Of a stretch of 64,000 nt of DNA, positions 3,035 to 39,337 are shown piece by piece. The translations under genes were made by a program, and so were the position numbers. Positions within the stretch are counted from its first letter, which is position 1. Every line of letters starts with the position of its first letter. Source of the DNA: Bacteroidota bacterium (lineage in GTDB: Bacteria > Bacteroidota > Bacteroidia > 2-12-FULL-35-15); assembly GCA_017303895.1 (NCBI GenBank), contig JAFLBF010000003.1, positions 181,694 through 245,693 of the forward strand, written 5' to 3'. The notes beneath the pieces were generated by a model that did no database searches, was not told the DNA's origin, and saw only the letters and a program-made list of their open reading frames with translations.

Positions 3035-3049
3035 ACTTAAACTTGTCGG

Positions 3050-3814
3050 TTAGGGAGTTACTCTGTCTGCATACCAGATCAGAACTAAAGTGCTGGATAA
3101 TAAACTTAAAATAGGTGTAATCTCAGCCAGCACCTTGGTTGCATATTTTCTACGTGGTTCAACATAAATAATATCGTTGGCTTGTAAAACCATATTGGCA
3201 TATTTAATGCCTTCAATCTTAGAAAGGTCTAAAAGATATACATCGTCTTTTTCCCCATTTTTCCGGATAAGTTTCACAATCTTTGCTTTTCCATCATCAG
3301 CTATTCCACCGGCTAGTGCTAATGCTTCAATTAATGTGGTATTGTTGTTCATAAGTGGGATGACTTTTGCATCGCCTGCACTACCGGGGAAAATAACAAC
3401 ACGTTTATTTTGTACGGTCATTAATACAAATGGCTTAACGTAATAACTGGAATATTTTTCTTCCAGCATCAATTCAGCTTCACGCACGGTCAATCCACTT
3501 ATTTTTGTTCTGCCAAGTATGGGTAGCTTAACATTGCCATCGTATTCTACCAGAAAATCCATACGGTTATTCATTTGGTAGTCACGATTTGTTTGATTTA
3601 ACGAGGTTAAGTCGATCAATTTGAATCCATCATTTGAGAATATCCTGAACTCAATGAGGTCGTTGGCCGCAATGATGTAGTCTTTCGCTTTTGTTGAGTC
3701 CGGAAGTTTTGAATATTGATAGTCTTTCTTGGTTTTAAGCATAATGCTTGAATTCAGCCATCCGCAGCTTGAAAAAAGCATAGCAATTCCTGCCAATAGA
3801 AGTAGTTTGCGCAT
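3050..3814 (-). CDS. Polysaccharide export outer-membrane lipoprotein (Wza / Poly_export + SLBB family)
   Basis: The sequence is typical of BexD/CtrA/Wza exporters. I place the start at the ATG at 3814 (MRKLLLLAGIAMLFSSC lipobox), not at the TTG at 3835 used by the ORF track. It lies directly upstream of the Wzc-like gene. Confidence 0.8.
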   Translation of the reverse strand: MRKLLLLAGIAMLFSSCGWLNSSIMLKTKKDYQYSKLPDSTKAKDYIIAANDLIEFRIFSNDGFKLIDLTSLNQTNRDYQMNNRMDFLVEYDGNVKLPILGRTKISGLTVREAELMLEEKYSSYYVKPFVLMTVQNKRVVIFPGSAGDAKVIPLMNNNTTLIEALALAGGIADDGKAKIVKLIRKNGEKDDVYLLDLSKIEGIKYANMVLQANDIIYVEPRRKYATKVLAEITPILSLLSSTLVLIWYADRVTP

Positions 3815-3881
3815 AATTGTTTGTAATAATAACAAACAAAGTTAAAAAAAAACCTGAAATGCCCTAAAATTAATATAGAAA

Positions 3882-5084: not shown

Positions 5085-6971
5085 TTAATTGCAATATTTC
5101 TTCCACCAGAATTGAAATACGATCAAAGCCCAAACCTTCTCCACCGCATCATTCGGATTACTACTCATTAGTTGTTTCTTTAGTTGTTGGATCGTACTTA
5201 AATTAAAGATGTTTTGTTCTATTATAAACTGATCATCCAGCAATTCATTGGTGATCATGGATCTCAGGTCTGTTCTAAACCATTTTAGCAAAGGTACTTC
5301 AAAGCCTTTTTTTCCTCTTCCCATTAATTCTAGGGGTAATTCTTTAGCGAATGTTTCTTTTAAGATCTTTTTTCTTTGTTCCCCATCTATTTTAAAATGA
5401 GCCGGAAGTGAAAATGCAAAATCAACAACTTTCTGATCTAAAAATGGAACTCTCACTTCCAAACTCTGATTCATACTCATGCGGTCTATTTTCACCAGCA
5501 TATCGTTTTCAAGCACCAATAACATGTCGGTGTGCAAAACAGAATTATAGTCAGCATTTATATGTTTTAGTAGTTCTTTTTTTCTCTGCTCAAAAAGTTG
5601 TTGATCTCCTTGTACTATTGATCTAAATAATTCTCCGGCTTTAAAGCCCGACCATTTGGCCCATTGCCAGTATCTTTCAGCCGGACTCAGCTTCATGCCC
5701 TCTGCAAATTTTTCCAGCTGGCGGATCTTGTTTCCTGCTTTTGTGTTTCTTGACTTTGGTAATTGTTTTAATACCGGATGGCTGGCCTTTACAAGTTTGG
5801 TAGTAAAACCACTATGACGTGCTTTTAACTCAGCTGCATGTTTGTTGTAGCCTGCAAATAATTCATCCGCTCCATCACCTGAAAGTGCTACCGTAACATG
5901 CTTTTTTGTATGCATGCTTAATATGTTCACCGCTAATGCCGATGAATCGGCAAAAGGCTCGTCAATATATTCTAAAACAGTATGCAGGTTTTCGTAAAGA
6001 TCATTGTTGCTTAAACTAAATACCGTATGTTCTGTATTGTGTTTCTTTGCTACCAATTGAGCAAAACTAGTTTCATCGAATAAAGGTTCATCTTTATATC
6101 CGATCGAGAAGGTATTTAGCTTTTGCGTATGTTTAGCTGCTAAAGCTGTAATGATGGAGGAATCGATGCCTCCACTCAAGAATGTTCCCAAAGGAACATC
6201 GGCCACCAGTCTGTTTTTTACGGACTCCTCTAAAAGTTGATGAAGTTCTTTTTTTGCTGTTTCGTAGTTGTTTTCTTGTTTGCTAGTAGCAATTTCAGGA
6301 ATTGAATAGTAGGTACATTTTGTCGTGTTGCCTTTGTTGTCAAGGATCATAAAACTCCCTGCATCTAATTTTAAAACATGCTCAAAAATAGAGTAGGGGG
6401 CAGGAATGTAGTTAAGATGAAAATAGGTTTGCAAAGCTACTTTGTCTATTTGGCGAAGGATGCCAAATTCTAATAATGACTTTAACTCGGATGCAAAAAC
6501 AAATTTATCCTCATCTTGAAAATAGTATAAAGGTTTTATTCCAAAACGGTCGCGGGCAAGGAACATTGTTTCTGTTTCTTTATCATAAATTGCAAAGGCA
6601 AACTCACCGTCCAGTCTTTCTAAACACTTTTCCTTATATTCTATATACAAGGTTAGTAAGACTTCGGTATCACTTTGTGAGCGGAAGGTATATCCTTTTT
6701 GCTCGAGTACTTTTTTTAAAGATCTGTAGTTAAAGATCTCCCCGTTAAAAACGATGGTGTATCTTTTTGAAGGATCACTGAATGGTTGTGCCGCTGCATT
6801 ACTCGTGTCAATGATCGATAATCTACGATGTCCTAATGCGCAATTTTTATTAAAGTAAATTCCTTCCCCATCAGGTCCACGCTTTAATAAAGCATAGGTA
6901 GCTGCACTTATGTTGGATAAGTGTTTTGTACCCTCTTCATTGAATGCCAATATCCCGGTTATGCCACACAT
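5085..6971 (-). CDS. asnB: Asparagine synthase (glutamine-hydrolysing), EPS-locus type amidotransferase
   Basis: 628 aa with an N-terminal MCGI Ntn-glutaminase Cys and the PP-loop SGGIDSS. Confidence 0.9.
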   Translation of the reverse strand: MCGITGILAFNEEGTKHLSNISAATYALLKRGPDGEGIYFNKNCALGHRRLSIIDTSNAAAQPFSDPSKRYTIVFNGEIFNYRSLKKVLEQKGYTFRSQSDTEVLLTLYIEYKEKCLERLDGEFAFAIYDKETETMFLARDRFGIKPLYYFQDEDKFVFASELKSLLEFGILRQIDKVALQTYFHLNYIPAPYSIFEHVLKLDAGSFMILDNKGNTTKCTYYSIPEIATSKQENNYETAKKELHQLLEESVKNRLVADVPLGTFLSGGIDSSIITALAAKHTQKLNTFSIGYKDEPLFDETSFAQLVAKKHNTEHTVFSLSNNDLYENLHTVLEYIDEPFADSSALAVNILSMHTKKHVTVALSGDGADELFAGYNKHAAELKARHSGFTTKLVKASHPVLKQLPKSRNTKAGNKIRQLEKFAEGMKLSPAERYWQWAKWSGFKAGELFRSIVQGDQQLFEQRKKELLKHINADYNSVLHTDMLLVLENDMLVKIDRMSMNQSLEVRVPFLDQKVVDFAFSLPAHFKIDGEQRKKILKETFAKELPLELMGRGKKGFEVPLLKWFRTDLRSMITNELLDDQFIIEQNIFNLSTIQQLKKQLMSSNPNDAVEKVWALIVFQFWWKKYCN

Positions 6972-11744: not shown

Positions 11745-12095
11745 CTATTTGTCCAGGTCTTCAAAATTTACATCAGAGAAGGAATTGTTTTCTGATGAAT
11801 GTTCTGCACGAGGCTCGATTGCTGGAGAATTAGCTTTGATGTGTTCAATTGATTCATTCAAACCCTCTAAGAATTTTTCAAAATCTTCTTTGTATAAAAA
11901 CAACTTGTGCTTTTCATAAAAGAATTTACCATCCTCACCAAAACGCTTCTTGCTTTCTGTGATCGTTAAGTAGAAGTCATTTCCTTTTGTACTTTTTACA
12001 TCAAAGAAATACGTTCTTTTTCCGGCTCTAACAGATTTTGAGAAAATATCATCTCTGTCGTTCCCTTGTTTTTCAAATCCTTCTTCCATCGTCAT
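11745..12095 (-). CDS. PUR-alpha-like DNA/RNA-binding protein (DUF3276 family)
   Basis: 116 aa. The segment KRTYFFDVKSTKGNDFYLTITESKKRF...KHKLFLYKEDFEKF matches the bacterial PUR repeat pattern. Confidence 0.6.
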   Translation of the reverse strand: MTMEEGFEKQGNDRDDIFSKSVRAGKRTYFFDVKSTKGNDFYLTITESKKRFGEDGKFFYEKHKLFLYKEDFEKFLEGLNESIEHIKANSPAIEPRAEHSSENNSFSDVNFEDLDK

Positions 12096-12228
12096 AATTA
12101 AATAATTGAATAATTTTTTCTTTTTTTAGAATTATACTTCTAGCAAATGTTTACAAAAAAAATTGCTAAAACAAGGCTTGTTAATAACTTTTCATAGCTT
12201 GTTAATTAACCCATCAAGCCTTAAAAAC

Positions 12229-13986
12229 TTAGTTTTTTTCTTCTTCCAGTAATTGCATTTTGTGGAGGTTGAAATAATTGCCTTGTTTTGCCAACAATTC
12301 TTGATGATTTCCTTGTTCAATGATGCTTCCATTTTCCATTACAATGATATGATCCGCATTTTTAACGGATGAAACCCGATGTCCAATGATGATGGTAGTT
12401 TTGTTCTTCATAACAGTCTTCAAATTGCTCAAGATCTCTTCTTCTGTTTCGGTGTCTACAGCCGATAAACAATCGTCAAATATGAGTATTTGCGGCTCTT
12501 TGATGATTGCCCTTGCAATAGAGATACGTTGTTTCTGACCACCGGAAAGAGTAATACCTCTTTCACCAACTATTGTTTCAAATTGTTCAGGGAAAGCTGC
12601 AATGTTATCAAATATAGCAGCATTTTTAGCGGCCTGTTCAATCTGCTTTTTGTCTTTATTCTCTATGCCAAACGCTATGTTATTGGAAATGGTATCCGAG
12701 AAAAGGAACACTTCCTGTGGAACATAGCCAATATTCTTTCTTAAAAGTGCCAAATTGTGTTTTGAGATCAATTGTTTGTCCAGCATGATTTCACCTTCAG
12801 CGGGATCATAAAGTCTGCAGATCAGGTTAGCGATGGTTGATTTTCCTGATCCTGTTTTTCCAATGATCGCTAATGAGCCTCCTTTTTCAATTTTGAAGGA
12901 GCAGTTCTGTATGGCTGTGATGCCTGAATCGGGGTAGGTAAAACTTACATTTTTGAATTCAATTTCACCTTCAATAGGGTAGATCTGATCATCTGTATTC
13001 GTGATCGCAGGAGCTGTCTGTAAGAATTCATTGATGCGCGTTTGTGATGCTGCAGCCCTTTGAATGAGGGATGTTACCCAACCCAAAGAGGCAATAGGCC
13101 AGGTTAAACGGTTAACATAAACAATGAATTCAGCGATGTTTCCGTAGGTAAGTCCTTTGTTTTCAATTACTAACATTCCTCCGATATAAATCGTGAAAAT
13201 GGTGCTTAAGCCAATTAACAAGATCATGAACGGTTGGAATAAGGATTCGGTTTTGATCAAATTCAGTGTTCTGTTCTGGTAGGCAGCGCTGTGTTTCTCA
13301 AATTCAGAAATGGAATGTCCTTCTCTCCCATAAGCTTTTAATACACGTATTCCCGAGAAGGCTTCTTGTGCATGAGAGGTAATATCAGATAATTTTTCTT
13401 GAACCTGGGTACTTTTTTTATTGATCGTATGACTCACGTAGTAGATCGAAATGGCAAGAACAGGCAATGGAATAAGTACATAGATGGTGAGCTTCAGATC
13501 AATGTTGATCATCACAAAAATAGTAAGTGAAAATGTAACAGCAGTATTGATGATGTACATAATGGCGGGGCCGATATACATTCTTACCCTGCTAACATCC
13601 TCACTGATGCGGTTCATGATATCGCCCGTATTGTTTCTTTTATAAAAGCCGATATCCAGTTTTTGATAATGCTCATAGATCTCATTTTTTAGATCGTATT
13701 CAATGTGCCTCGACATAACGATGATGGTTTGGCGCATTAAAAACAAAAAGAAACCACTTATTACAGCCAATCCAATGATCAGTCCTCCATAAAAAAGAAG
13801 ACGGGTATGAGGGTCATTATTAGCCTCTTTTAGAGCGGGGATCTCCTTTAAATAGTCGATCGCATCACGTACATAGGTGACAGAATAAACTCCAAAAATA
13901 TTGGACAGAATAACAAATACAACTCCTAATCCCAGTCTCCACCTGTATTTATAGAAGTATTTATTGATGTGTTTGAGTGATTTCAA
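12229..13986 (-). CDS. ABC transporter, fused permease/ATPase (MsbA-like exporter)
   Basis: 585 aa with six N-terminal TM helices, Walker A GKTGSGKST, signature LSGGQKQR and Walker B ILIFDD. Confidence 0.9.
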   Translation of the reverse strand: MKSLKHINKYFYKYRWRLGLGVVFVILSNIFGVYSVTYVRDAIDYLKEIPALKEANNDPHTRLLFYGGLIIGLAVISGFFLFLMRQTIIVMSRHIEYDLKNEIYEHYQKLDIGFYKRNNTGDIMNRISEDVSRVRMYIGPAIMYIINTAVTFSLTIFVMINIDLKLTIYVLIPLPVLAISIYYVSHTINKKSTQVQEKLSDITSHAQEAFSGIRVLKAYGREGHSISEFEKHSAAYQNRTLNLIKTESLFQPFMILLIGLSTIFTIYIGGMLVIENKGLTYGNIAEFIVYVNRLTWPIASLGWVTSLIQRAAASQTRINEFLQTAPAITNTDDQIYPIEGEIEFKNVSFTYPDSGITAIQNCSFKIEKGGSLAIIGKTGSGKSTIANLICRLYDPAEGEIMLDKQLISKHNLALLRKNIGYVPQEVFLFSDTISNNIAFGIENKDKKQIEQAAKNAAIFDNIAAFPEQFETIVGERGITLSGGQKQRISIARAIIKEPQILIFDDCLSAVDTETEEEILSNLKTVMKNKTTIIIGHRVSSVKNADHIIVMENGSIIEQGNHQELLAKQGNYFNLHKMQLLEEEKN

Positions 13987-14010
13987 GGGCTATTTATATA
14001 TGCTTTACAT

Positions 14011-14041
14011 TTTGGCTACTCGAAAAATAACTATAATTTTG
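14011..14041 (+). promoter_or_regulatory. Candidate Bacteroidota sigma-A promoter (TTTG-N19-TAATTTTG)
   Basis: TTTG lies at 14011-14014, followed by a 19-nt spacer and TAATTTTG at 14034-14041. This is about 78 nt upstream of the leucine dehydrogenase ATG. Confidence 0.5.
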
Positions 14042-14119
14042 CGCCACCAAATGAATGTGGTACAAAAGTAAGCATTAAACAATTCGGCACACCGCCAATT
14101 AATCAATAAACAAATTAGT

Positions 14120-15229
14120 ATGATACAAGTTCAGGATATTAAAAATTCATCGTTGATGGAAAATCCGGTTATCGCTCAGATGGCTCTGAATAACCACGAA
14201 CAGATCGTTTTTTGTAACGATAATGAAACAGGCTTAAAAGCGATCATCGCTATTCATAACACGGTTTTAGGACCAAGTTTGGGTGGAACGCGTATGTGGG
14301 CCTATAATAATGAAATGGAAGCATTAACTGATGTTCTCCGTCTTTCTAGAGGGATGACCTATAAATCGTCTGTAGCAGGATTAAATTTAGGTGGTGGTAA
14401 AGCGGTGATCATTGGCGACTCTAAAACACAAAAAAATGAAGCGTTAATGCGCAGATTCGGGAAGTTCGTCAATAGCTTGTCAGGAAAATACATAACAGCG
14501 GAAGATGTAGGTGTAAGCACAAAAGATATGGAGTACATCAAAATGGAAACGGATTTTGTGAGTGGCTTGCCGGTAAATATGGGAGGTAGTGGTGATCCTT
14601 CTCCTGTTACGGCTTATGGTGTGTATCTGTCGATGAAAGCTTCGGCCAAAGAAAAATGGGGGAACGATAGCTTGTCAGGTAAAAAAGTGGTTGTACAAGG
14701 AATTGGTCATGTGGGCGAAAGTCTAGTGAAACATTTGGTGAAAGAAGGTGCTAAGGTTTCTATTTTCGATATTAATGAAGAAAGAGTGAAGGCTGTTGCT
14801 AAAGAAACAGGCGCGGAGGTGATCGCTGATGGATCGAAGATCTATGATCTGGAAATGGATATCTATGCTCCATGTGCATTAGGAGCAACAGTGAATACCG
14901 ATACATTGAATCGCTTAAAATGTGCTATCATTTGTGGTGCAGCAAATAATCAGCTAGCAGACGAAAATGTGCATGGGAAAATGGTGATCGAAAAAGGGAT
15001 TTTGTATGCTCCTGATTTTGTGGTGAACGCAGGTGGTATTATCAATGTGTACTATGAATTAGAAGGATATAACAGAGAACGTGCCTTAGCACATGCAGAG
15101 AAGATCTATGATACCACATTAAATATTTTCAAGATCTCTAAAGAGCAAAATATTCCGACATACGTTGCAGCTAATCGTTTGGCAGAAAAACGTATTGCTG
15201 ATATAGCAAAGATCAAAGTGTCATTTTAA
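14120..15229 (+). CDS. Leucine (Glu/Leu/Phe/Val family) dehydrogenase
   Basis: 369 aa with motifs GGTRMW and the catalytic GGGKAVI, plus the Rossmann segment VVVQGIGHVG. Confidence 0.85.
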   Translation: MIQVQDIKNSSLMENPVIAQMALNNHEQIVFCNDNETGLKAIIAIHNTVLGPSLGGTRMWAYNNEMEALTDVLRLSRGMTYKSSVAGLNLGGGKAVIIGDSKTQKNEALMRRFGKFVNSLSGKYITAEDVGVSTKDMEYIKMETDFVSGLPVNMGGSGDPSPVTAYGVYLSMKASAKEKWGNDSLSGKKVVVQGIGHVGESLVKHLVKEGAKVSIFDINEERVKAVAKETGAEVIADGSKIYDLEMDIYAPCALGATVNTDTLNRLKCAIICGAANNQLADENVHGKMVIEKGILYAPDFVVNAGGIINVYYELEGYNRERALAHAEKIYDTTLNIFKISKEQNIPTYVAANRLAEKRIADIAKIKVSF

Positions 15230-15257
15230 TTTTTTATTAATCGTATAATCAGAGGTT

Positions 15258-16205
15258 ATGTTAAACAGAAGGTATTTAAGAATTAAGGCGATGCAGGCGT
15301 TATACGGTTTTTTTCAATCGGAGAATAAAGATCTTGCTAAAACAGAACGTGAAATGTTTACCGGAATAGATAAGATCTATGATCTTTATATCTATCAGTT
15401 AGCGTTTTTGTTGGAATTAAAACATGTGGCGGGCGTACTTATTGAGGAGGCAAAAACGAAACATCTTCCTTCCAAAGAAGATCTGAATCCAAATTTGAAA
15501 TTTATTGAGAATAAGTTCCTTATTCAGTTGGAGGAGAATATTCATTTGAAACGCGAGATGAACAATCGTAAGATCAGCTGGAACAACGAATTTGAGTTGG
15601 TGAAGAAGGTTCTCAATACGATCAAAGCTTCAGAGATCTACGGAAAATACATGAATGTTTCCGATGATTCATACAAAACGGATCGCAACTTTATCATCGA
15701 GATCTTTAAAGAATTTATTGCGGATTATGAAGTGTTGAATCATTTGTATGAGGAAAAGAATTTGCATTGGGGAGATGATATTTACATTGTGAATCCAACC
15801 GTTGTTAAAACAATTGAGAGTTTTAAAGAAGATTCAACTCCCGATCTGCATTTAAGTGTGTTGTATAAAGACAGAGAAGAGGACATGGAATTTGTGAAGG
15901 ATCTTTTACGACAAACAGCTATCCGTAACGATGAAACGGAAAAGCTGATCGGTGATAAAACAAAGAATTGGGAAGTGGAGCGTATTGCGATGATGGATGT
16001 TCTGTTGATGAAAATGGCTATTACTGAGATGTTGCATTTTTCAAGTATTCCTGTTAAAGTAACATTGAATGAATACATTGAGATCTCGAAAATGTATAGT
16101 ACTCCTAAGAGTAAGATCTTTATCAATGGGATCTTAGATAAGTTGGTTGCCGATTTTAAATCGGGAAATATGCTCAACAAAATGGGTAGAGGTTTAATGG
16201 AATAA
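15258..16205 (+). CDS. nusB: Transcription antitermination factor NusB (long Bacteroidota form)
   Basis: The N-terminus (RRYLRIKAMQALY) and the C-terminal NusB core (ERIAMMDVLLMKMAITEM...FINGILDKL) match. At 315 aa it is longer than the canonical ~140 aa. Confidence 0.75.
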   Translation: MLNRRYLRIKAMQALYGFFQSENKDLAKTEREMFTGIDKIYDLYIYQLAFLLELKHVAGVLIEEAKTKHLPSKEDLNPNLKFIENKFLIQLEENIHLKREMNNRKISWNNEFELVKKVLNTIKASEIYGKYMNVSDDSYKTDRNFIIEIFKEFIADYEVLNHLYEEKNLHWGDDIYIVNPTVVKTIESFKEDSTPDLHLSVLYKDREEDMEFVKDLLRQTAIRNDETEKLIGDKTKNWEVERIAMMDVLLMKMAITEMLHFSSIPVKVTLNEYIEISKMYSTPKSKIFINGILDKLVADFKSGNMLNKMGRGLME

Positions 16206-16249
16206 GTGTTTAAGAATAAATAATAGTATAAATCAAAACAATATCAGAT

Positions 16250-28925: not shown

Positions 28926-28945
28926 TAAGATCAATTAAGATCAAA

Positions 28946-28979
28946 TAAAAAACTCCCGCCATTTGGCGGGAGTTTTTTT
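28946..28979. terminator. Bidirectional rho-independent terminator
   Basis: The stem actcccgcc/ggcgggagt (28952-28960 / 28965-28973) is flanked by A6 and T6 runs. Confidence 0.8.
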
Positions 28980-28982
28980 GTT

Positions 28983-29771
28983 TTAGAAATGAAAGTTGAC
29001 GCCCAGAGTTAGGGGAGAAAACCGTATGTTTTTAATATATTCTCCGGTATTGTGTTCCTGGTAAAAGGATTTGAAATAAAACACACTCCCTACGCATAAT
29101 GATAACTTGTTTTTATACAAATAGCGTTCAAAAGAAATACTTAAGTATGGTGTTATCCTGTTAAAACTGAGTCTGTCTTTCCGGGGATTTGTATCATAGG
29201 TTTTTAATATTACAGTTTCAGTTACCGGTGGTGCATTGCCTGTGTAAACGTAATAGAATTTGTAATCTTTTGTTTCTTCATGGATTTCTGAATAAATAAA
29301 ATCAAAATTCACTCCTGCCTCAAAATGAGCTTTGAAAAATTTGGTGTAATTTAATTGAGCGCTCACAAATAGTGGAATGCCTATGTATTTATTGGTAATA
29401 GTTCCAACAGCTGAATGCACCCATGTAGTATCTGCTGTTTTTATTACATTCGTATTTATACCTCGTATCCGTTCTTTTGTATAACATAGTCCTGTTCCTA
29501 GAAGGACTAGCTTGTTTATATTTTTTTTTATTCGTAAAGTGTGTGTGTCAAAAATATTGTTGTCTGAATTGTTTCTAATTCTGTTTTTAAAAGATGGAAT
29601 ATCTATTATTTTTATATTGTTATTGGAAAATTCAGGGAATTGATGCTTAATAAAAGTGAGTGCAGTTGTTTTGTATTCAATCGTAAATAGACTGTCAGTA
29701 CTAGCCCTTGATATAAGTGTGGAAGTGCTAAATAGAAATGAGAAAATAAAAACAGCCTTTTTTAAATACAT
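28983..29771 (-). CDS. Putative outer-membrane beta-barrel protein, paralog A
   Basis: 262 aa with a signal peptide, an alternating amphipathic pattern and the C-terminal aromatic terminus LGVNFHF. It is paralogous to 29844..30635. Confidence 0.55.
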   Translation of the reverse strand: MYLKKAVFIFSFLFSTSTLISRASTDSLFTIEYKTTALTFIKHQFPEFSNNNIKIIDIPSFKNRIRNNSDNNIFDTHTLRIKKNINKLVLLGTGLCYTKERIRGINTNVIKTADTTWVHSAVGTITNKYIGIPLFVSAQLNYTKFFKAHFEAGVNFDFIYSEIHEETKDYKFYYVYTGNAPPVTETVILKTYDTNPRKDRLSFNRITPYLSISFERYLYKNKLSLCVGSVFYFKSFYQEHNTGEYIKNIRFSPLTLGVNFHF

Positions 29772-29843
29772 TTCATTGTAGAATTAAAATCATGCTTCTC
29801 TTCAAATGTACAGAAAAATGTTGTTTTTGTTTTATTTTTTGTT

Positions 29844-30635
29844 TTAGAAATGAAAGTTGGCTCCTAGGGTTAAAGGAGAAAACCGTATGTTTTTAATATA
29901 CTCTCCGGTATTGTGTTCCTGATAAAAGGATCTGAAATAAAACACACTTCCAACGCATAATGATAACTTGTTTTTATACAAATAGCGTTCAAAAGAAATG
30001 CTTAAATATGGTGTTATTCTGTTAAAGCTAGCTCGGTCTTTACGAGGATGTGTTTCGTATGTTTTTATCAAATAGGTTTGTGTAACAGGGGGAGCGCTTC
30101 CTGAATGTACAGTTACATATTTAAGATCTTTTGTTTCTTCATGAATTTCAGAATAAATAAAATCAAAGTTCACTCCTGCCTCAAAATGAGCTTTGAAAAA
30201 TTTGGAGTAATTTAATTGAGCGCTCACAAATAGTGGAATACCTATGTATTTGTAAGTAATAGTTCCATAAATGCTATGATACCAAACAGTGTCCCCATCG
30301 ATCTTTTCCATGTTCCAATGGGTACCTAATATTTGTTCTTTTGTATGGCAAGCTCCGGTTCCTAATAGAAAAACATTTCCGAGTTGTTTTTTGATTCGAA
30401 TACTATGATTGTCAAAGAGATAATTTGTAGATTCTTCTTTTATTCTTGTTCCTTTGCCACGGTTTGAATAATTTGGAAGTAAGTTCGGATACCCTATAAA
30501 TTCATAATTTATAAAAGTAAGGCCGGTTGCTCTATATTCAATTGTGAATAAACTGTCTGTATTAGCCTTCATTCTTTTTATTGAAATGCTAAAACATATA
30601 ACAAGTAAAATTATAATTGCTTTTTTGCAATCCAT
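29844..30635 (-). CDS. Putative outer-membrane beta-barrel protein, paralog B
   Basis: 263 aa with the same architecture and the terminus LGANFHF. It lies 2 nt downstream of the 943-aa gene. Confidence 0.55.
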   Translation of the reverse strand: MDCKKAIIILLVICFSISIKRMKANTDSLFTIEYRATGLTFINYEFIGYPNLLPNYSNRGKGTRIKEESTNYLFDNHSIRIKKQLGNVFLLGTGACHTKEQILGTHWNMEKIDGDTVWYHSIYGTITYKYIGIPLFVSAQLNYSKFFKAHFEAGVNFDFIYSEIHEETKDLKYVTVHSGSAPPVTQTYLIKTYETHPRKDRASFNRITPYLSISFERYLYKNKLSLCVGSVFYFRSFYQEHNTGEYIKNIRFSPLTLGANFHF

Positions 30636-30637
30636 AT

Positions 30638-33469
30638 TTATTGTTGTATTACTAGTGCTTTTGAGTTAAAACCACTTGAGGATTTAGTCCTGATTAAATA
30701 AACGCCATTCCTAATATTTCTTAAATCTATATTTTTTTCTTCAGATAAATTTAAATCAACAAATATTAATCTACCGAACGAATCATAGATTTCTATTGAG
30801 TACTTCTCATTATTATTTAATTCTACCTTAAAAATGCCAACATTGGGATTGGGGGCAATAATTATTTCGTTTATATAATTTGAGAGCAAGTTATTGCGCT
30901 CAAATTTTCTAGATTGGGTTGTATCACAATCAGGAACCACAATGTATTGTTCTAATGTATCAGAATTACCAGATGTATCTGTTACAATTAACATTGAGTG
31001 GTAAGTTCCAGGAAAATTATAGTAAACAGTTGGTGTGGACGAATTTGATGTTTGACCATTCCCAAAATCCCAATAATACTGAAAAAGGGAATTAGTGTCA
31101 TTTTCATATACTCCCTCTATCTTAACCGAATCTGTCCAACACATAAGTGTATCATACAAAGGAGGGGATTCGCTTGAATGAAAACTTGTATTATTTGAAG
31201 CCTTGAATGCAAAATCGTAGTTACCTGAAGGGAAGTTAGGTGCAATCATGCCGTACAAATTTGACCAATTTTGAACATTATATAGAAAACCGCCACTATT
31301 TCTCGTTGAATACCACTCAATTTCATATTTCTTAAGAATTTTAGCATGTGTAATAGCAATTTTTCCATTGTAGCTATTGGGGCTAGTTGCATCATCATCG
31401 TTCTGATCACTCGAATATGCAAAAAAGTAATGTCCATTATTGTCGTAACAATTCCACGCCAAATTTCCCATCCAATTGGAGTAATTATGTGCCCATCCCA
31501 TTATTTTACTTTTGTCACCATTTCTGATTTGAAAAACCTCACAGTCAGAATTTCTCATAATTATTGAAGGCTTTTCCCATTTTGACGGAAATGTGAAATT
31601 ATTGCTTTCAAAATCTATGTTGTAGAAAAAACTCCGTAATGCAGGGAAATTATCTTGTTTAAATGAGTTATTGAAATTTTGCCACCAATTAAGGCCAGTG
31701 CCAAATGTAGACATGAATGAAGACGCCCACATGACATTATGAAATTCAACATCGTTACATCCTTCTATTTGGTTGGGATCAAAATCATCTACTCCAGGTG
31801 TATTTCTTTGGGTTGCCATAAATCCTGTTTCTCCAAAAATAGAGGGTTTGTCATAATCAATTAAAAGGCCCTTATATCCGTTGTTCGGAATAGGAAAAGT
31901 TTCGTTCATTACTTTAAATCGTCCTTGATTTTCGTCACGCATATTCCCATACGAATGTGCGCTGGTAACGTCAAAAAGTATATTGGAAAAAGGGTTAAGA
32001 GTGCTAGATTGTCTATCAGCGTATGAGGTGCTAATTAAATGATTCGTTTCTCCTAATTGATTTTTAATGTAACCTGCTAGAGCTAAATTAAAATAGTAAG
32101 AATCAGTGGAGTGACTAGGAAAAGAGTTGGTAGTCCCCCAGCCATCCGCTTCACTTAATAATTCAATTATCCCAAGACTCGTTGAATACCCCCATCTAGC
32201 AATTATATATCGGTATCTTCTTTTTATATGTTCTAATGCGATATTTGAAGTAAGTACATCGTAGGGTTCTTGAATCCCCAAATCTATTTTGTAAGGATTG
32301 TAATCCCATAAAAAATTTGTCTGTTGGTAATTAGGAGAAAGAGGATCGTATTTTACATAATTAAATTGAAATTCTAAATTTAGAAGCATGTATATTTTCC
32401 TGCTTTCACATAATTCAAACAATTTGTCTAACTCAAATGCTTGATTTTGTCTGTTCTGTGAACTGCCATCATAGCTAGTGTATTTTCCATAATGCCCAGC
32501 CTTTTCCCATTCTAACCCAAAGCTATATGGGGTCATTAATATTCTAAAAAAATTTCCTTGACTATTCGCAAGATTATTAACTTCGCTTAAGTATTCAACA
32601 AAGGGTTCTGGCCTGAAATTATTACTATTCCAAGTGGAATTAATCCAATTGAGATTTTGACCAATTGCAAAAAAAGATTCGCTAGTTTCACTGAATTTCA
32701 AATGTCGTTTATGATGGCCAACTTGTAAATATCCTTTGTTGGCAGAAGGGATACATTCAAACTCAATACAATCAACATCTATTGGAGGGAATTTGTTAGT
32801 ATGTGAAATAACCTTTATATCACATTTCCATTTTCCCAAATCATTTGGTGCAAAGCGAATTCTGAAATTGTATTCGTTAATAATTGGATTCCAGCTATAG
32901 TTGTGTTCTACGTCTTGAATCCTTTCAAAGTCTTCCATGTAAAATCCATATATAATTCTATTTAATGAACCACTTGGAGAAATGAATGTTGCAATAATAT
33001 CAATATCTTCCGGATTGAATGGATTGACGTTTGTAGAATTCGCCCCCGAGTTAAAATAATCGCTTACAAGGTTGTCTATACTGGTTGGTAGGTCTAACCC
33101 TAATTCTAATTTTTCATATTTACCTACTTGTGTTGTTGGAGTGGTAATAGGTGATAATACAACAACTTGAAAATTGGGGTTTTCTAACTGTGCCTTAAAT
33201 TTCCCACTTCCACTGAGTGCCGAGACGCTAAAACCCGGTTTGAGGTGAATACAATTGCCAGCGGTGTAGTTTACTTGTGCGGTTCCACTAATTGCCACCG
33301 TATTGCTTGGAATATTGGGTGAAATAATACAATTGTGTGAACAATAATTATGTATTCCAGAAGTTAGTGTTTTGTTTTCAACTATAATAGTTGGCGCAAC
33401 TTGCGAATATGTTATTTCTGCCAAAGAAAAACAGAACACTAATGAGATTAATTTTATTTTAAGTTTCAT
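30638..33469 (-). CDS. Large multi-domain T9SS cargo: coathanger-like N-term, DUF5060-like Ig, GH-like TIM-barrel region, PKD, Por_Secre_tail CTD
   Basis: 943 aa with a signal peptide. Recognisable pieces are NYTAGNCIHLKPGFSV (3-coathanger-stack-like), FRIRFAPNDLGKWKCDIKV (DUF5060-like), candidate catalytic Glu contexts LLSEADGW and FGETGF, a PKD motif YYWDFGNGQTS...GTYHSMLIVTDTSGNSD (about nt 30926-31132), and the CTD APNPNVGIFKVEL...GVYLIRTKS (nt 30641-30862). Confidence 0.65.
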   Translation of the reverse strand: MKLKIKLISLVFCFSLAEITYSQVAPTIIVENKTLTSGIHNYCSHNCIISPNIPSNTVAISGTAQVNYTAGNCIHLKPGFSVSALSGSGKFKAQLENPNFQVVVLSPITTPTTQVGKYEKLELGLDLPTSIDNLVSDYFNSGANSTNVNPFNPEDIDIIATFISPSGSLNRIIYGFYMEDFERIQDVEHNYSWNPIINEYNFRIRFAPNDLGKWKCDIKVISHTNKFPPIDVDCIEFECIPSANKGYLQVGHHKRHLKFSETSESFFAIGQNLNWINSTWNSNNFRPEPFVEYLSEVNNLANSQGNFFRILMTPYSFGLEWEKAGHYGKYTSYDGSSQNRQNQAFELDKLFELCESRKIYMLLNLEFQFNYVKYDPLSPNYQQTNFLWDYNPYKIDLGIQEPYDVLTSNIALEHIKRRYRYIIARWGYSTSLGIIELLSEADGWGTTNSFPSHSTDSYYFNLALAGYIKNQLGETNHLISTSYADRQSSTLNPFSNILFDVTSAHSYGNMRDENQGRFKVMNETFPIPNNGYKGLLIDYDKPSIFGETGFMATQRNTPGVDDFDPNQIEGCNDVEFHNVMWASSFMSTFGTGLNWWQNFNNSFKQDNFPALRSFFYNIDFESNNFTFPSKWEKPSIIMRNSDCEVFQIRNGDKSKIMGWAHNYSNWMGNLAWNCYDNNGHYFFAYSSDQNDDDATSPNSYNGKIAITHAKILKKYEIEWYSTRNSGGFLYNVQNWSNLYGMIAPNFPSGNYDFAFKASNNTSFHSSESPPLYDTLMCWTDSVKIEGVYENDTNSLFQYYWDFGNGQTSNSSTPTVYYNFPGTYHSMLIVTDTSGNSDTLEQYIVVPDCDTTQSRKFERNNLLSNYINEIIIAPNPNVGIFKVELNNNEKYSIEIYDSFGRLIFVDLNLSEEKNIDLRNIRNGVYLIRTKSSSGFNSKALVIQQ

Positions 33470-33480
33470 GTTTTTTAATC

Positions 33481-34659
33481 TTATTTGTTCAAATCTTCTA
33501 TAGCTTTTTTCAGCTCATCATTCTTAATTTCTAATTGCTCAATTTTTTTGTTTTGTTCAATTAGGTAGAGAGTAAGCTCCTCAATTTTCTGCATTTGAAG
33601 TATAACCATTTCTCCTAAGTCGGCACCGTTTGCTGTTACTTCTTTTTGTGATGGAATTTCAGGTAAGTGTTTGTTTGTATGGATATAGGTTTCTAATTCA
33701 TTTAATGTCATTAGTTTATAATCTGTTTCAAAAACATAATCAGGAAATGTTCCTAATTGAATGTTTACTTCTCTGGCATATACTTTCCCATCACCTAATA
33801 CTCTGAAATTTTCAATTCCAGCATTTTCAATCACAAATGCTTTAGTTGTATTGTCATTAACTTCTTGCTTTATTCCATACAATGCTCCAGAAGCTGTTTG
33901 AACAAGAATACCGGAGTTCGTACCAGTGCTAGATGCTGCTACTGTTAATTTATAATTATTCGTATTGGTTAACAAAGTTGTTCCTACCCCGATATTCCCA
34001 TTTTTTAAAATAGTAAGTGCATTTGAAGTGGCTACAGCACTAGTCCCGTTTCCAACAACAAATAAGGGGTCAGTAGGAATCCATGTGCTGGCATTGTAGC
34101 CTGCAGATAATTGATTGAACTGTCCAATAACCATTGATAAGTATGATTGGGCATTTGTAGAATAGCCAAATGCAGCTGAAATGGCTCCGCTGGAAGTAGC
34201 TTGAGAGCCAACGGCAAATGAATAATTTCCGCTTGCTGTTGTGCTTCCGCCAAATGCAAAAGCACCACCACCACTTGCGGTTGTAGTGGTACCTGCAGCA
34301 AATGATCGTGAACCACTTGCTGTAGTATTATAGCCAAATGCAACAGACCATGTTCCGATATTCGTAGGATCCCACTGAGAACTAGTTACTTGTCCTGCTC
34401 GAATAGCAAATTTTGAAGGAATCCACATTAATCTAACCCCAGATCCTGTAGTAGGTGTGGAGCCTGATGATCCATCAAAAAGCACGCTTCCATTTTTTAC
34501 TTGAAACATTGAAACTGGTGCATAGGAAGGAAATCCTATGCCCACATTTCCTGAAGTTATTTGAGTAATATTGCCCGCTGAAGTAGAAAATTGAGCCCAT
34601 GAAAAAGATGCTTTTAAAATTAAAAAGCATGATAAAATTAATTTTGTTGATGTTTGCAT
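33481..34659 (-). CDS. Secreted YadA-head-like (Hep_Hag-type) repeat protein with C-terminal coiled coil, no membrane anchor
   Basis: I place the start at the ATG at 34659 (MQTSTKLILSCFLILKASFSWAQ). It contains repeats SVAFGYNTTASGSRSFAAGTTTTASGGGAFAFGGSTTASGNYSFAVGSQATSSGAISAAFGYSTNA and GNxGIG motifs. The C-terminus is PDYVF...HLPEIPS...GEMVILQMQKIEELTLYLIEQNKKIEQLEIKNDELKKAIEDLNK. Confidence 0.6.
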   Translation of the reverse strand: MQTSTKLILSCFLILKASFSWAQFSTSAGNITQITSGNVGIGFPSYAPVSMFQVKNGSVLFDGSSGSTPTTGSGVRLMWIPSKFAIRAGQVTSSQWDPTNIGTWSVAFGYNTTASGSRSFAAGTTTTASGGGAFAFGGSTTASGNYSFAVGSQATSSGAISAAFGYSTNAQSYLSMVIGQFNQLSAGYNASTWIPTDPLFVVGNGTSAVATSNALTILKNGNIGVGTTLLTNTNNYKLTVAASSTGTNSGILVQTASGALYGIKQEVNDNTTKAFVIENAGIENFRVLGDGKVYAREVNIQLGTFPDYVFETDYKLMTLNELETYIHTNKHLPEIPSQKEVTANGADLGEMVILQMQKIEELTLYLIEQNKKIEQLEIKNDELKKAIEDLNK

Positions 34660-34674
34660 GTCTATAGTTTTTAT

Positions 34675-34705
34675 CAAATCTAAACTAATAAATACAATTT
34701 GCAAA
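34675..34705 (-). promoter_or_regulatory. Candidate sigma-A promoter for the island operon (TTTG-N19-TAGATTTG)
   Basis: On the minus strand, TTTG corresponds to plus-strand 34702-34705, followed by a 19-nt spacer and TAGATTTG (plus-strand 34675-34682). This is 15 nt upstream of the ATG at 34659. Confidence 0.45.
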
Positions 34706-34755
34706 CATGATTTATATCAGCAGTTCTTATTTTTAATAATTGATAAGCATTAAAA

Positions 34756-36345
34756 TTATTCCTCTTTAAACTCAGAGATAAAGTGGAATTTAATATCCGG
34801 ATTTTTTTCTTCAGCCATTTGTAATGCCCATGCGGACTCCGCCAGGAACACAGGACGGCCATCTTTATCGGTTGCCATGTGATGTGCTTTCTCGAAAATA
34901 AACTCGTCCAGTTTTTTCTTATCCTTGCTACTGATCCAGCAAGCTTTATACAAGGAGATACTTTCATAATCGCAGGAAGCGGAGTACTCGCTTCTCAAAC
35001 GATGTTGAATGACTTCAAACTGAAGTGCTCCCACCGTTCCCAATACTTTTCTATTATCGGTACGTTTGGTGAACAACTGTGCCACACCTTCATCGGTCAA
35101 TTGCTCCAAGCCTTTATTCAGCTGCTTGGTTTTCATTGGATCTTTATTTACCACATAACGGAACAATTCAGGGGAGAACTGAGGAATACCTTTGAAGTTG
35201 AATTTTTCTCCTTCTGTTAATGTATCACCGATCTTAAAATTGGATGAATCATATAAACCAATGATATCTCCGGGGTATGCTTCATCCACCACATTTTTAT
35301 CCTGCGCCATAAAAGCAGTAGGATTGGAGAATTTCATATTTCTATTATCACGAACATGGTAATAGTTTTTGTTACGCTCAAATTTTCCTGACACAATGCG
35401 TAAAAACGCAATACGGTCGCGGTGCTTTGGATCCAAATTCGCATGGATCTTAAATACAAATCCACTGAAATTCTTATCATCCGGATTCACTTCTCTGGTG
35501 TCAGTATTTCTTCCTCTCGGTGCCGGTGCGATCTCAATAAAGGAATCCAATAATTCCCTCACTCCAAAATTATTTACCGCACTACCAAAATACACAGGAG
35601 ATACCAGTGCTTCTAAATATTCTTCTTTATCAAATTTAGGATAGCCTGCTTCTAATAATTCCACATCATTGCGAAGTGTATTCGCATAATCTTCGCCTAT
35701 TAATTTATCCAGTGTTCCATCATTCAGATCTTTGATCTCAATGGAGTTTTCTAATGTTTGTTTTTCGCCCGGGTTGAATACGGTCAAACTTTTTTCATAG
35801 AGGTTGTAAACGCCTTTAAACGTTTTACCCATACTGATCGGCCAACTCAAGGGACGAAGGTCGATGCGTAATTCTTTCTCGATCTCCTCTAAAAGATCGA
35901 AGGGATCTTTTCCTTCGCGGTCTAATTTATTGATGAACACGATCACCGGTGTGTTGCGCATCCGACAAACCTCTAATAATTTTCTGGTTTGAGGCTCCAC
36001 CCCTTTGGCACAGTCGATCAACATGATCACACTATCTACTGCAGTCAGAGTACGGTAGGTATCTTCGGCAAAATCCTCGTGTCCGGGTGTATCCAGCAAA
36101 TTGATCTTGATACCTTTGTACTCAAATCCCATTACGGAAGTAGCTACGGAGATACCACGCTGACGTTCGATCTCCATAAAGTCGGAGGTCGTGTGTTTTT
36201 TGATCTTGTTGGATTTTACCGCACCTGCTGTTTGTATGGCACCTCCGAACAAAAGTAATTTTTCGGTCAATGTGGTTTTACCGGCATCGGGGTGGGCAAT
36301 GATACCAAAGGTCTTACGTCTTTCTATTTCTTCTTTTAATGTCAT
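34756..36345 (-). CDS. prfC: Peptide chain release factor 3
   Basis: It has GTPase motifs AHPDAGKTT, DTPGHEDF and NKLD, and RF3 sequence throughout. Confidence 0.95.
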   Translation of the reverse strand: MTLKEEIERRKTFGIIAHPDAGKTTLTEKLLLFGGAIQTAGAVKSNKIKKHTTSDFMEIERQRGISVATSVMGFEYKGIKINLLDTPGHEDFAEDTYRTLTAVDSVIMLIDCAKGVEPQTRKLLEVCRMRNTPVIVFINKLDREGKDPFDLLEEIEKELRIDLRPLSWPISMGKTFKGVYNLYEKSLTVFNPGEKQTLENSIEIKDLNDGTLDKLIGEDYANTLRNDVELLEAGYPKFDKEEYLEALVSPVYFGSAVNNFGVRELLDSFIEIAPAPRGRNTDTREVNPDDKNFSGFVFKIHANLDPKHRDRIAFLRIVSGKFERNKNYYHVRDNRNMKFSNPTAFMAQDKNVVDEAYPGDIIGLYDSSNFKIGDTLTEGEKFNFKGIPQFSPELFRYVVNKDPMKTKQLNKGLEQLTDEGVAQLFTKRTDNRKVLGTVGALQFEVIQHRLRSEYSASCDYESISLYKACWISSKDKKKLDEFIFEKAHHMATDKDGRPVFLAESAWALQMAEEKNPDIKFHFISEFKEE

Positions 36346-38444: not shown

Positions 38445-38900
38445 TTAAAGTAAGCCGAATTGTTTGCAATGATGTACTGCGTGTTTGTAGAGCAGGTGTG
38501 TCCATTCTTCGAAATTTAATTCTCCAAAAAAAGGATTGATTAATGTTGCTCCTTTGTTGTTCTCAAAATAATGAATGAAATCTGAAATTGTTGTGTTCAG
38601 TTCATCAATGGATGCTTGCATTGTGTTATGCTTTGCCGGAGCAGGCGTTTCGGACATTAATGAATTGGGTGTATTGGGCTTAAATTCTTTATCACTCATG
38701 GCAAATGCTTTGAATACATCTACCTTCTCAACAGGAGAGATCAGTTTTTGATTATTCTTTCCTGTTGCAAAGCTAATGGAGTCGCTCATGTGTTCCACCA
38801 TTTGTTGTGCATTCAAAACACCCCAGGAGCCTTTTGCATCTGCTTGTAATTTGGTTGCTAGTAAAGGGAATTCGTTTTTTAAGAAATTTAATTTGTCCAT
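38445..38900 (-). CDS. DinB-superfamily / DUF1569-like protein
   Basis: 151 aa and helical, with His-containing motifs (MVEHMSDS, HHCKQF) of DinB-like four-helix bundles. Confidence 0.55.
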   Translation of the reverse strand: MDKLNFLKNEFPLLATKLQADAKGSWGVLNAQQMVEHMSDSISFATGKNNQKLISPVEKVDVFKAFAMSDKEFKPNTPNSLMSETPAPAKHNTMQASIDELNTTISDFIHYFENNKGATLINPFFGELNFEEWTHLLYKHAVHHCKQFGLL

Positions 38901-39337
38901 TATTTCTTTTTTAGTTCTTTCGGAAAATCTGTTTTTACAATATACACGCCATCCATAGGGTTCTCGATTGCATGGGTGTCTCTTAAATAGAAATACAAAT
39001 GTGTTTCTTTTTTCTTTTCATCCACTTGCTTATCGGTTTTCTTCAATAATTTTTTAGAAACTGCAAATTGCATCTTGTTTCCTTTTTCTGTGATACAATC
39101 AATTACAGTCATGTCATTGATGTCAAAACTGAATTGAGTATTATCAGGGAAATAACCGGCTAATGTGTATTGGGTGTTATTCTTTATTTTAAACTCTTTA
39201 ACGTGTTCCGAAACTTTTAATTCATCTTCCCATAAATGTTTGATATTATCTTCCGATTCTTCACCCTTGTGAAGGTCATCGGCAAAGCCTTGACTGAATT
39301 CGGAATTAACTTGTATAAAGTGGAGGTGTAAGTTCAT
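38900..39337 (-). CDS. Hypothetical protein
   Basis: 145-aa ORF with tight spacing to its neighbours on the same strand. I recognise no family. Confidence 0.45.
   Translation of the reverse strand: MNLHLHFIQVNSEFSQGFADDLHKGEESEDNIKHLWEDELKVSEHVKEFKIKNNTQYTLAGYFPDNTQFSFDINDMTVIDCITEKGNKMQFAVSKKLLKKTDKQVDEKKKETHLYFYLRDTHAIENPMDGVYIVKTDFPKELKKK

Follow-up and report, generated by a model that had tools for sequence, protein, structure and literature searches.

A GATC-poor fibre, glycosidase and outer-membrane-type protein cassette beside prfC in an uncultured Bacteroidia lineage

How does a block of DNA that differs sharply in composition from its surroundings come to lie beside a translation factor gene, and what might its genes do together? 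This question is raised by a 5.7-kb interval next to prfC in an uncultured Bacteroidia lineage. The stretch of DNA analysed here, which we call the window, is 64 kb long, and the interval, which we call the island, spans positions 28981-34755. Domain and fold searches agree with its predicted content: a protein with a YadA-like head but no membrane anchor (the fibre), a cargo protein of the type IX secretion system (T9SS) with a glycoside-hydrolase core (the glycosidase), and two small outer-membrane-type paralogues, called barrels A and B. The original prediction took these genes for a horizontally acquired unit, marked as foreign by its scarcity of GATC sites. We instead favour, with even confidence, an explanation in which the cassette belongs to a recurrent type of three-part Bacteroidota operon and sits at an old variable locus, with the function and history proposed below.

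Layout, composition and relatives of the island

The four genes all lie on the reverse strand. The fibre gene (33481-34659; 392 amino acids (aa) from an ATG, with an alternative TTG start possible at 34704) is followed by the glycosidase gene (30638-33469; 943 aa), the barrel A gene (29844-30635; 263 aa) and the barrel B gene (28983-29771; 262 aa), with spacings of 11, 2 and 72 nucleotides (nt). The prfC stop at 34756 sets the right limit of the cassette and leaves a spacer of 96 nt to the fibre gene. On the left lies a bidirectional intrinsic terminator (28947-28978, acting on both strands) with a perfect stem of 14 pairs in the terminator scan, or 15-nt arms in the repeat analysis, and T runs on either side. 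It is common to barrel B and the convergent choice-of-anchor-J gene, and it forms the left border of the GATC-poor DNA. The four genes are all where they had been placed originally.

Compositionally, the island stands out in some respects and not in others. We counted 10 GATC sites in 28981-34755, in line with the approximate hand tally, where 48.7 would be expected from the remainder of the window (Poisson P 2e-11); the earlier tallies for nusB (15), recA (13) and prfC (18) are exact as well. Other 5775-nt windows hold 32-74 sites each (mean 49.5, sd 10.4), and the three longest GATC-free gaps in the whole 64 kb all fall within the island. The left border is sharp, with native GATC sites at 28913, 28929 and 28939 and the next one only at 29929. 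The island is also more AT-rich (GC 0.334 vs 0.373) and its CpG observed/expected ratio is lower (0.65 vs 0.89). Its tetranucleotide L1 distance to the rest of the window is 0.254 vs 0.147 +/- 0.014 (z 7.5), which makes it the strongest tetranucleotide outlier within the window, and the z score is still 4.6 after GATC-related k-mers are dropped. The AT-richness and abrupt switch noticed originally are borne out by GC and k-mer statistics, but none of the four genes is outlying in overall synonymous codon usage (z -1.65 to +0.45). The anomaly is confined to certain k-mers, namely GATC, CpG and the ATC/ATA codons.

Relatives of the locus were found by a genome scan with PrfC plus homologue look-ups, and the content of the interval between prfC and choice-of-anchor-J varies widely among them. 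The window carries the fibre, the glycosidase and barrels A and B in this interval. At the same site L081 (PrfC 95.7% identical) has a fibre (70% aa identity), a glycosidase (65%) and one barrel (69-71%), in a locus colinear with the window across 22 kb. The sister metagenome-assembled genome (MAG) GCA_016786925.1, here L168 (PrfC 99.6%), has only orthologues of barrel A (91%) and barrel B (86%), and L169 (PrfC 95.1%) has one barrel only. The site is empty in L002 (PrfC 91%), where, as had been anticipated for a genome lacking the island, prfC is directly followed by choice-of-anchor-J after 254 nt. In L001 (PrfC 92%) an unrelated 1073-aa PKD_5/CHU_C cargo with a type B C-terminal domain (CTD) follows prfC (11818-15039), which makes the region 3′ of prfC look like a general hot spot for genes of T9SS cargos.

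The sister MAG is close enough for the differences to be read at the nucleotide level, as its flanks are 91-95% identical to those of the window. The stretch 28943-28978, which holds the terminator, is 100% identical in the two. By blastn breakpoints, the segment absent from L168 is 30652-34755 (4.1 kb, fibre and glycosidase), with 5 nt in its place. In L168, the 20-nt spacer that separates prfC from the barrel can be aligned to the final ~16 nt of the glycosidase gene in both L081 and the window, and this 3′ remnant argues that the fibre and glycosidase genes were deleted in L168, not inserted in the window. Identity at 4-fold sites between window and L168 is equal for barrels (0.71-0.75) and flanks (0.72-0.77), so the barrels and their duplication appear older than the split of these two genomes. 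Taken together, the alignments present the locus as a long-occupied, variable surface-protein site with deletion and duplication, and not as an empty site into which a unit was dropped.

We also observed that the choice-of-anchor-J cargo gene is tandemly duplicated in L168 (11710-13943), the copies being 93% and 88% identical to the window copy. Together with the barrel duplication, this suggests a locus prone to duplication on either side of the terminator. An assembly chimera of the fibre-glycosidase segment was considered and is unlikely, given that the fibre protein is found on two contigs, that L168 retains the glycosidase scar and that L081 has the same gene order.

As had been noted before, no machinery for mobility is apparent. 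A tRNA scan of the 64-kb window found none, integrase and transposase families were absent from the Pfam matches listed for genes at the syntenic sites in L081, L168 and L169, and the island borders have no flanking direct repeats except one 14-nt AT-rich match that lies off the indel borders. This exact direct repeat, ATTTTTTTCTTCAG, has copies at 30731-30744, in the 3′ region of the glycosidase gene, and at 34801-34814, in the 3′ region of prfC, 4070 nt apart. We considered it as a mediator of the L168 deletion and rejected it, since the deletion ends off the repeats and the 4070-nt spacing differs from the 4104-nt indel; it is probably a chance AT-rich match. Of the features that characterise mobile islands, atypical composition and patchy presence were found here, while mobility genes, a tRNA or attachment site and border repeats were not, and the picture as a whole is that of a locus occupied for long and altered by deletion and duplication.

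Another k-mer sets the cassette apart. The CTAG observed/expected ratio is 0.96 in the island vs 0.17 in native DNA, where this word is strongly avoided. It is 0-0.37 in all relatives, and 0.67 in the L081 cassette copy vs 0.36 for L081 overall.

GATC enrichment of the host and the history of the cassette

The scarcity of GATC had been taken as the mark of foreign DNA, and this interpretation fails once the relatives are compared. The GATC observed/expected ratio is 2.49 (8.4 per kb) in native window DNA and 2.34 in the sister MAG, as against 0.56 in the island and 0.25-0.66 in L081, L169, L001, L002, L003 and most more distant relatives; some more distant loci (L004, L005, L007, L011) reach 0.8-1.4. 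The contrast is due to an enrichment of the host genome that the cassette missed, and not to unusual avoidance within the island.

The enrichment is visible in several ways. In native genes, isoleucine after a G-ending codon is encoded by ATC in 79% of cases vs 12-32% after A, C or T, and in the island ATC after a G-ending codon accounts for 7%. GATC in native genes is ~2-fold above a synonymous-shuffle expectation, which is not the case for the island. Intergenic DNA contains 27 GATC sites vs 15.8 expected. Every other gene longer than 1 kb is enriched, whatever its GC content at third codon positions, including the adjacent T9SS cargo gene choice-of-anchor-J (G-ATC 8 vs G-ATT 0). Of all the long genes, the glycosidase gene has much the lowest ratio, with 3 GATC vs 106 GATT, AATC and AATT sites. 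Since the excess is found both in NNG-ATC codon pairs and in intergenic DNA, the drive acts at the DNA level.

The timing of the enrichment can be read from the relatives. Counterparts of window GATC sites in L081 and L169 are mostly AATT, GATT, AATA or AATC. Of the GATC sites, 88-93% are common to window and L168, compared with a neutral expectation of 71-79% (the fourth power of a nucleotide identity of 0.917-0.942), and one-step precursors of the sites private to either genome are in no excess. As most sites are common to the two, the enrichment is older than their split. A drive or selection for GATC at the DNA level thus arose on the branch to the ancestor of window and L168, and it is now maintained. 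As to its cause, Dam-type methylation with biased repair, or selection, can be offered as guesses; a motif scan of the window for DPPY turned up no Dam-like open reading frame, and the literature on GATC over-representation and very short patch repair yielded nothing applicable.

We propose the following history. The site would already have held a complete cassette in the ancestor that the window organism shares with the sister MAG; the barrel would have been duplicated before these two split, and the fibre and glycosidase genes would later have been deleted in the sister. A GATC-poor relative would have supplied the present cassette allele, which was either brought in or swapped at this same locus through homologous recombination, after most of the GATC enrichment and before the window/L168 split. 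We lean slightly towards such a late entry by recombination at the conserved flanks. In its favour, the enrichment acts at the DNA level and extends without exception to the long genes outside the island, the neighbouring T9SS cargo gene among them, and late entry would also explain the missing mobility genes.

The barrels carry a further trace in favour of such an entry, one that fits a swap of cassette DNA among lineages. Their C-terminal 140 residues are 78-96% identical across clade members, paralogues included, while the N-terminal halves are 42-58% identical between paralogues or lineages. In the corresponding DNA (28983-29400 and 29844-30260, reverse strand; alignment A2), 0.62-0.86 of synonymous codons are identical vs 0.53 in housekeeping flanks between the same genomes. 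The comparison with L081 gives 0.69 vs 0.53, and it is this lower divergence from L081 than that of the flanks that is compatible with inter-lineage exchange. The conservation itself could stem from gene conversion, exchange between lineages or constraint at the nucleotide level.

Exchange of this kind has familiar parallels. O-antigen and capsule loci are variable surface-structure loci between conserved genes and are exchanged by homologous recombination. Like them, the cassette locus has fixed flanks (prfC and choice-of-anchor-J) with content that varies among close relatives, an atypical AT-rich composition and no mobility genes. It differs in holding protein surface components instead of glycan synthesis genes, and recombinational replacement is here read from the missing GATC enrichment.

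The main competitor is vertical inheritance with exemption, in which the cassette was at the locus before the L081 split and was never replaced, with the enrichment acting only weakly on it, possibly owing to silence or poor expression, or to counter-selection of GATC within the cassette. To this we give a sizeable minority share of our belief, as a number of results speak for it and weigh against late entry. The presence of the cassette at the same locus and in the same gene order in L081 argues against late arrival. At synonymous sites, the fibre and glycosidase genes have diverged from L081 just as far as the flanks have. The L081 cassette is likewise atypical within its own genome (L1 distance 0.215 vs 0.134 +/- 0.016; CpG 0.64 vs 0.87), and the window island is nearer to the L081 island (distance 0.165) than to either host; low GC and CpG, being common to the L081 cassette, are thus intrinsic to the cassette. 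We also found no donor lineage of the cassette. Moreover, native DNA can escape the enrichment: two small syntenic genes at 38445-39337 (151 and 145 aa, one DinB_2-like) have 1 GATC in 893 nt in both window and L168, while their divergence from L081 and L169 is normal and the patch does not look acquired. The enrichment is therefore imperfectly uniform, and exemption without transfer is possible. Finally, the barrels have gained no private GATC since the window/L168 split, where a rough estimate from site turnover would predict ~2-3 gains. Against exemption, the enrichment extends to intergenic DNA and to all other genes over 1 kb, so that there is no obvious way in which 5.7 kb would be spared, and the GATC ratio of the glycosidase gene is far the lowest among long genes.

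A recurrent trio and its proteins

The cassette is not peculiar to this locus. We examined a set of glycosidase homologues, limited to those that include the N-terminal region, at 15 distinct loci (18 records, with two pairs being the same place on different contigs), with 23-65% identity and unrelated genomic contexts. In all 15, the same-strand gene directly upstream encodes a protein that ends in the fibre C-terminal module (hidden Markov model E 1e-24 to 1e-51). The N-terminal part of these upstream proteins is YadA-like or collagen-like and their length ranges from 280 to 800 aa. Plainer DUF5060 enzymes from a metagenome scan, which match only residues ~100-650, had no fibre neighbour. 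Downstream of the glycosidase homologues there is usually a 196-263-aa protein with a signal peptide, sometimes preceded by a ~135-147-aa protein, and in L102 two such small proteins stand in tandem. While a profile of the three close barrels had no match in other cassettes, an enlarged barrel profile matches the downstream proteins in L084 (E 9e-10) and L087 (E 4e-4).

The fibre is also found with other cargos. At three independent fibre-homologue loci the gene after the fibre encodes a T9SS cargo that is not homologous to the glycosidase, with small proteins after it in 2 of the 3; one of these small proteins matches OMP_b-brl_2 at E <= 1e-5. What the fibre-adjacent cargos have in common is the 3-coathanger-stack domain (GCX_COOH), which we found in 4 of 4 kinds, as opposed to 0 of 4 nearby cellular T9SS cargos (Fisher exact P ~0.014, on a small sample). 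Three of the four score at or above the 26-bit NCBIfam cut-off, and the fourth, in L170, scores 25.1 bits. A CTD protein that follows a short fibre on the phage contig L172 is without GCX_COOH. We found no description of a fibre/T9SS cargo/barrel operon in the literature, in keeping with the earlier statement that the combination matches no described system.

Several cassettes have neighbours of their own. In two independent cassettes of the fibre/T9SS cargo/barrel type, a gene for a 66-aa HTH_11 protein lies just upstream of the fibre gene (L225 5713-5913 and L227 5712-5912), and this protein may serve the cassette as its own regulator; nothing corresponds to it in the window, with only 96 nt from prfC to the fibre gene. 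In L084 the cassette is flanked by genes for a SIR2_2 protein of 1184 aa and for an AAA_15/AAA_21 ATPase (2764-6318 and 14650-16236), a setting that resembles a defence island. In L083 a gene with an Arm-DNA-bind_5 domain, the N-terminal domain of integrases (13367-13657), adjoins a cassette.

In the fibre protein, a Sec signal peptide (MQTSTKLILSCFLILKASFSWAQ) precedes a YadA-like beta-roll head, which a variable linker joins to a helical C-terminal module that includes a terminal coiled coil. The head repeats (aa 75-225; 33985-34437, reverse strand) have a 14-residue strand periodicity and are modelled by AlphaFold2 (AF2) with a predicted local distance difference test (pLDDT) score of 85-98. 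Over the whole model the mean pLDDT is 74, with the head above 90 and a C-terminal helix at residues 348-391. Pfam YadA_head (PF05658) matches at 24.7 bits, just below its cut-off of 25, and Foldseek aligns the head with probability ~1.0 to those of the trimeric autotransporter adhesins (TAAs) CbpF, BoaA, BpaC, AtaA and UspA1. Against a viral library, Foldseek matches the fibre to phage YadA-like and S74 tail-fibre proteins at E 2e-9, which beats the E-values to the TAAs. With type Vc adhesins (YadA, UspA1, BpaC, AtaA, CbpF) the fibre shares a left-handed beta-roll head followed by a coiled coil. Unlike them, it has no YadA_anchor domain (Pfam and NCBIfam, E <= 0.1), its coiled coil is the very C-terminus, it is only 392 aa long, and it bears a C-terminal module that is not known from TAAs. 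With the anchor missing and a helix at its C-terminus, the fibre is not a TAA. Neither the fibre nor the barrels have a T9SS CTD.

The C-terminal module (aa 284-392; 33484-33810, reverse strand) follows the pattern (F/W)PDYVF...HLPxIPS...GEM...KIEELTLYLIEQ and continues into a coiled coil of ~40 residues. It has no convincing match in PDB or Pfam (best PDB E 0.28; weak Pfam coiled-coil families at ~1e-3). The fibre has more than 3700 homologues, and many paralogues end instead in the intramolecular chaperone Peptidase_S74 (PF13884). The module also occurs in 32 IMG/VR viral contigs, and the phage fibres that it terminates there include some of 1800 to ~2100 aa. Cassette fibres and the S74 tail fibres of phages and Bacteroidota thus have a homologous head, with the module in the position of the S74 chaperone; the cassette fibre differs in its Sec signal peptide, its chromosomal location without phage neighbours, the lack of S74 and its pairing with a T9SS cargo. 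From these comparisons, the module is a putative trimerisation or assembly module.

A smaller version of the pair is seen on viral contigs. On the predicted phage or prophage contigs L172 (5626-7159), L174 and L179 (5518-6816) of IMG/VR, short signal-peptide proteins of 200-280 aa have the fibre module at their C-terminus, and the gene directly after each encodes a small protein with a CTD of the T9SS type. The L172 pair adjoins an amidase-like gene. These pairs may be a phage-borne miniature of the cellular fibre/cargo pair.

The glycosidase runs from a signal peptide and a 3-coathanger-stack motif through a DUF5060 Ig-like domain and a TIM-barrel core of clan GH-A to a PKD domain and a type A CTD. 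A hydrophobic N-terminus is visible, and with both a signal peptide and a CTD the protein qualifies as a type A T9SS cargo. All of the following features lie on the reverse strand. The 3-coathanger-stack (GCX_COOH) motif is at aa 59-84 (33218-33295; NF045639, 26.5 bits vs a cut-off of 26), the PKD domain at aa 775-843 (30941-31147; PF18911, E 1.7e-10) and the type A CTD at aa 871-942 (30644-30859; TIGR04183, 41 bits vs 23; PF18962, 41.8 vs 27). The stretch 31829-32152 spans the two predicted catalytic glutamates, E440 (codon 32150-32152), the predicted acid/base in ELLSEADGW, and E547 (codon 31829-31831), the predicted nucleophile in IFGETGF. The protein matches PDB entries 9gmj/9gpc, titled "DUF5060 domain-containing protein", by phmmer at E 5.6e-20 (residues 146-630 vs chain 37-467), and a profile of 21 homologues does so at E 7.5e-67 (positions 144-651 vs chain 36-496). 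E440 aligns with the E of 9gmj and the Q of 9gpc (WNEVD vs WNQVD) and E547 with GEFG, and both glutamates are invariant in 21 of 21 homologues. The homologues bear Pfam Cellulase (PF00150) or DUF4038 (PF13204). The cassette enzyme thus shares the DUF5060 Ig-like domain, the TIM-barrel core and both catalytic glutamates with the solved DUF5060-GH5-like hydrolases, from which its subfamily differs by the added N-terminal coathanger-stack, PKD domain and T9SS CTD and by the fibre that always precedes it. On this conservation, it is probably an active retaining clan GH-A glycosidase. An exact-protein look-up of the 943-aa sequence returned no record, and our literature search did not find the paper behind the solved homologue (9GMJ/9GPC/9GPA/9HHJ). 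That a T9SS is present in the host is suggested by the neighbouring choice-of-anchor-J protein, itself a T9SS cargo.

Barrels A and B are beta-rich proteins with signal peptides and are tandem paralogues. The duplication unit is 861 nt, with the direct repeats D1 and D2 85-93% identical and 861 nt apart. Barrel A ends in ...NFHF and the family in ...(Y/F)HF, a C-terminus typical of the beta-signals of outer-membrane proteins, and from such features a barrel fold is predicted for both. The family is rare, with 17 representatives among 1.84 billion proteins. It has no PDB match, and the barrels have no similarity to PorP_SprF (PF11751), to YadA_anchor or to any autotransporter barrel.

As for function, we consider a surface adhesion/glycan-cleavage module, in line with the original suggestion of barrels as anchors, a plausible hypothesis, one that is backed by the conserved gene order across distant Bacteroidota. 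The fibre would be exported by Sec and presumably trimeric, trimerising through its C-terminal module. The glycosidase would be exported and attached to the surface via the T9SS, with the fibre displayed alongside, and the small barrel would serve as a dedicated outer-membrane partner or anchor. Jointly, the three would bind and cut polysaccharide on a target surface.

The closest functional analogy, and only an analogy, may be the pairing of cargos with PorP/SprF. The T9SS has two known cargo classes, and type B cargos pair with PorP/SprF-like partners encoded directly downstream, as with SprB/SprF in Flavobacterium johnsoniae. Like these pairs, the cassette has a cargo gene followed by a small outer-membrane-type gene in one operon, in Bacteroidota only, an arrangement that suggests a dedicated partner. 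Unlike them, its cargo has a type A CTD (TIGR04183), its barrels form a tiny family of their own without a PF11751 match, and it contains a third component, the fibre, which is always upstream.

Some observations weigh against this division of labour, and most of them concern the barrels. OMP_b-brl_2 (PF13568) matches them at 16.8 and 18.7 bits vs a cut-off of 27 (E 0.007 for A and 0.002 for B), and across the family only 4 of 19 members match, all below threshold (best E 5e-4). The AF2 barrel model, from a 7-sequence alignment, is all-beta with long strands and is unreliable (mean pLDDT 38.7). In L082 and L094 a 444-482-aa membrane protein occupies the barrel position, and hhalign gives a probability of 0.4% between the barrel family and the downstream proteins of distant cassettes, that is, no detectable homology. 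As L168 and L169 have barrels alone, the barrels are not strictly dependent on fibre and glycosidase. For the fibre, the phage proteins that bear its C-terminal module without any cargo make assembly a more likely role for the module than docking.

The division of labour could also be arranged differently. Three-partner surface display, in which a tail-fibre-like trimer that has neither an anchor nor a T9SS signal is held at the surface by its operon partners, is a tentative idea that we regard as rather unlikely. Equally tentative is its corollary, an exchangeable cargo slot that may be filled by the glycosidase, a choice-of-anchor-L protein or others.

Less probable still, and to our minds doubtful, is a split analogue of the trimeric autotransporters, with the barrel as a translocator or anchor threaded by the fibre coiled coil and the glycosidase merely co-expressed. 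The head and coiled-coil order of a TAA in a protein without an anchor would fit such a split, as would the small barrel-type gene that follows in most cassettes and the duplication of barrels in two independent cassettes (window and L102). The barrels are nevertheless unlike YadA_anchor or any autotransporter barrel, the cassettes in L082, L094 and L170 are without a barrel, and barrels persist without a fibre in L168 and L169. In addition, phage fibres have the same C-terminal module where no barrel is possible.

Insertion, phage origin and the meaning of the cassette

The unit proposed originally, 5.7 kb acquired recently through a mobile element or illegitimate recombination, is improbable and largely refuted by synteny. 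It would account for the abrupt compositional borders and the empty site in L002, and cassettes of the same type do occur elsewhere in unrelated contexts, once by the Arm-DNA-bind_5 gene and once among the defence-like genes. But no integrase, transposase, tRNA or flanking repeat was found, the barrels have co-diverged with the flanks since the L168 split, and L168 retains the scar of a glycosidase deletion. The cassette that L081 has at the same site, at 65-71% protein identity, speaks for a locus long occupied, and the island is not one unit, in that barrels occur without fibre and glycosidase.

Very improbable, finally, is a degraded prophage or tailocin receptor-binding module of tail fibre and depolymerase: the fibre shares its head and C-terminal module with phage tail fibres (Foldseek E 2e-9; 32 viral contigs) and a PHROG match stands at 2e-8, but signal peptides on all four proteins and the T9SS CTD of the glycosidase indicate cellular secretion, no phage structural, lysis or integration genes lie within +/-10 kb in the window or the syntenic loci, the neighbours prfC, rplS and T9SS cargo genes are a cellular context, and the glycosidase core is absent from IMG/VR, where only the PKD domain of the cargo finds matches.

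We return to the favoured explanation, a recurrent operon at an old variable locus. The cassette is a new variant among T9SS cargo operons and tail-fibre-like adhesins, and the trio itself is undescribed. Across distant Bacteroidota, a type A cargo is consistently flanked by a fibre that has no CTD and by a small protein of the outer-membrane type; the kind of cargo changes, but fibre module and coathanger domain are retained. Should the three proteins cooperate, this would explain how the thousands of anchorless YadA-like or tail-fibre-like proteins in Bacteroidota come to be on the surface, and it would give a role to the uncharacterised coathanger-stack domain. Three-partner display, if true, would amount to a new T9SS-linked route to the surface and to bacterial domestication of phage fibre modules.

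The island also has a more general meaning for the reading of genome composition. A lineage-specific k-mer drive, such as the ~five-fold GATC enrichment common to these two sister MAGs, can date DNA, and it flags DNA that arrived later or escaped the drive even where there is no mobility gene and the locus is syntenic. It is at the same time a warning that the "foreign" composition of an island can stem from change in the host genome and not from change in the island.

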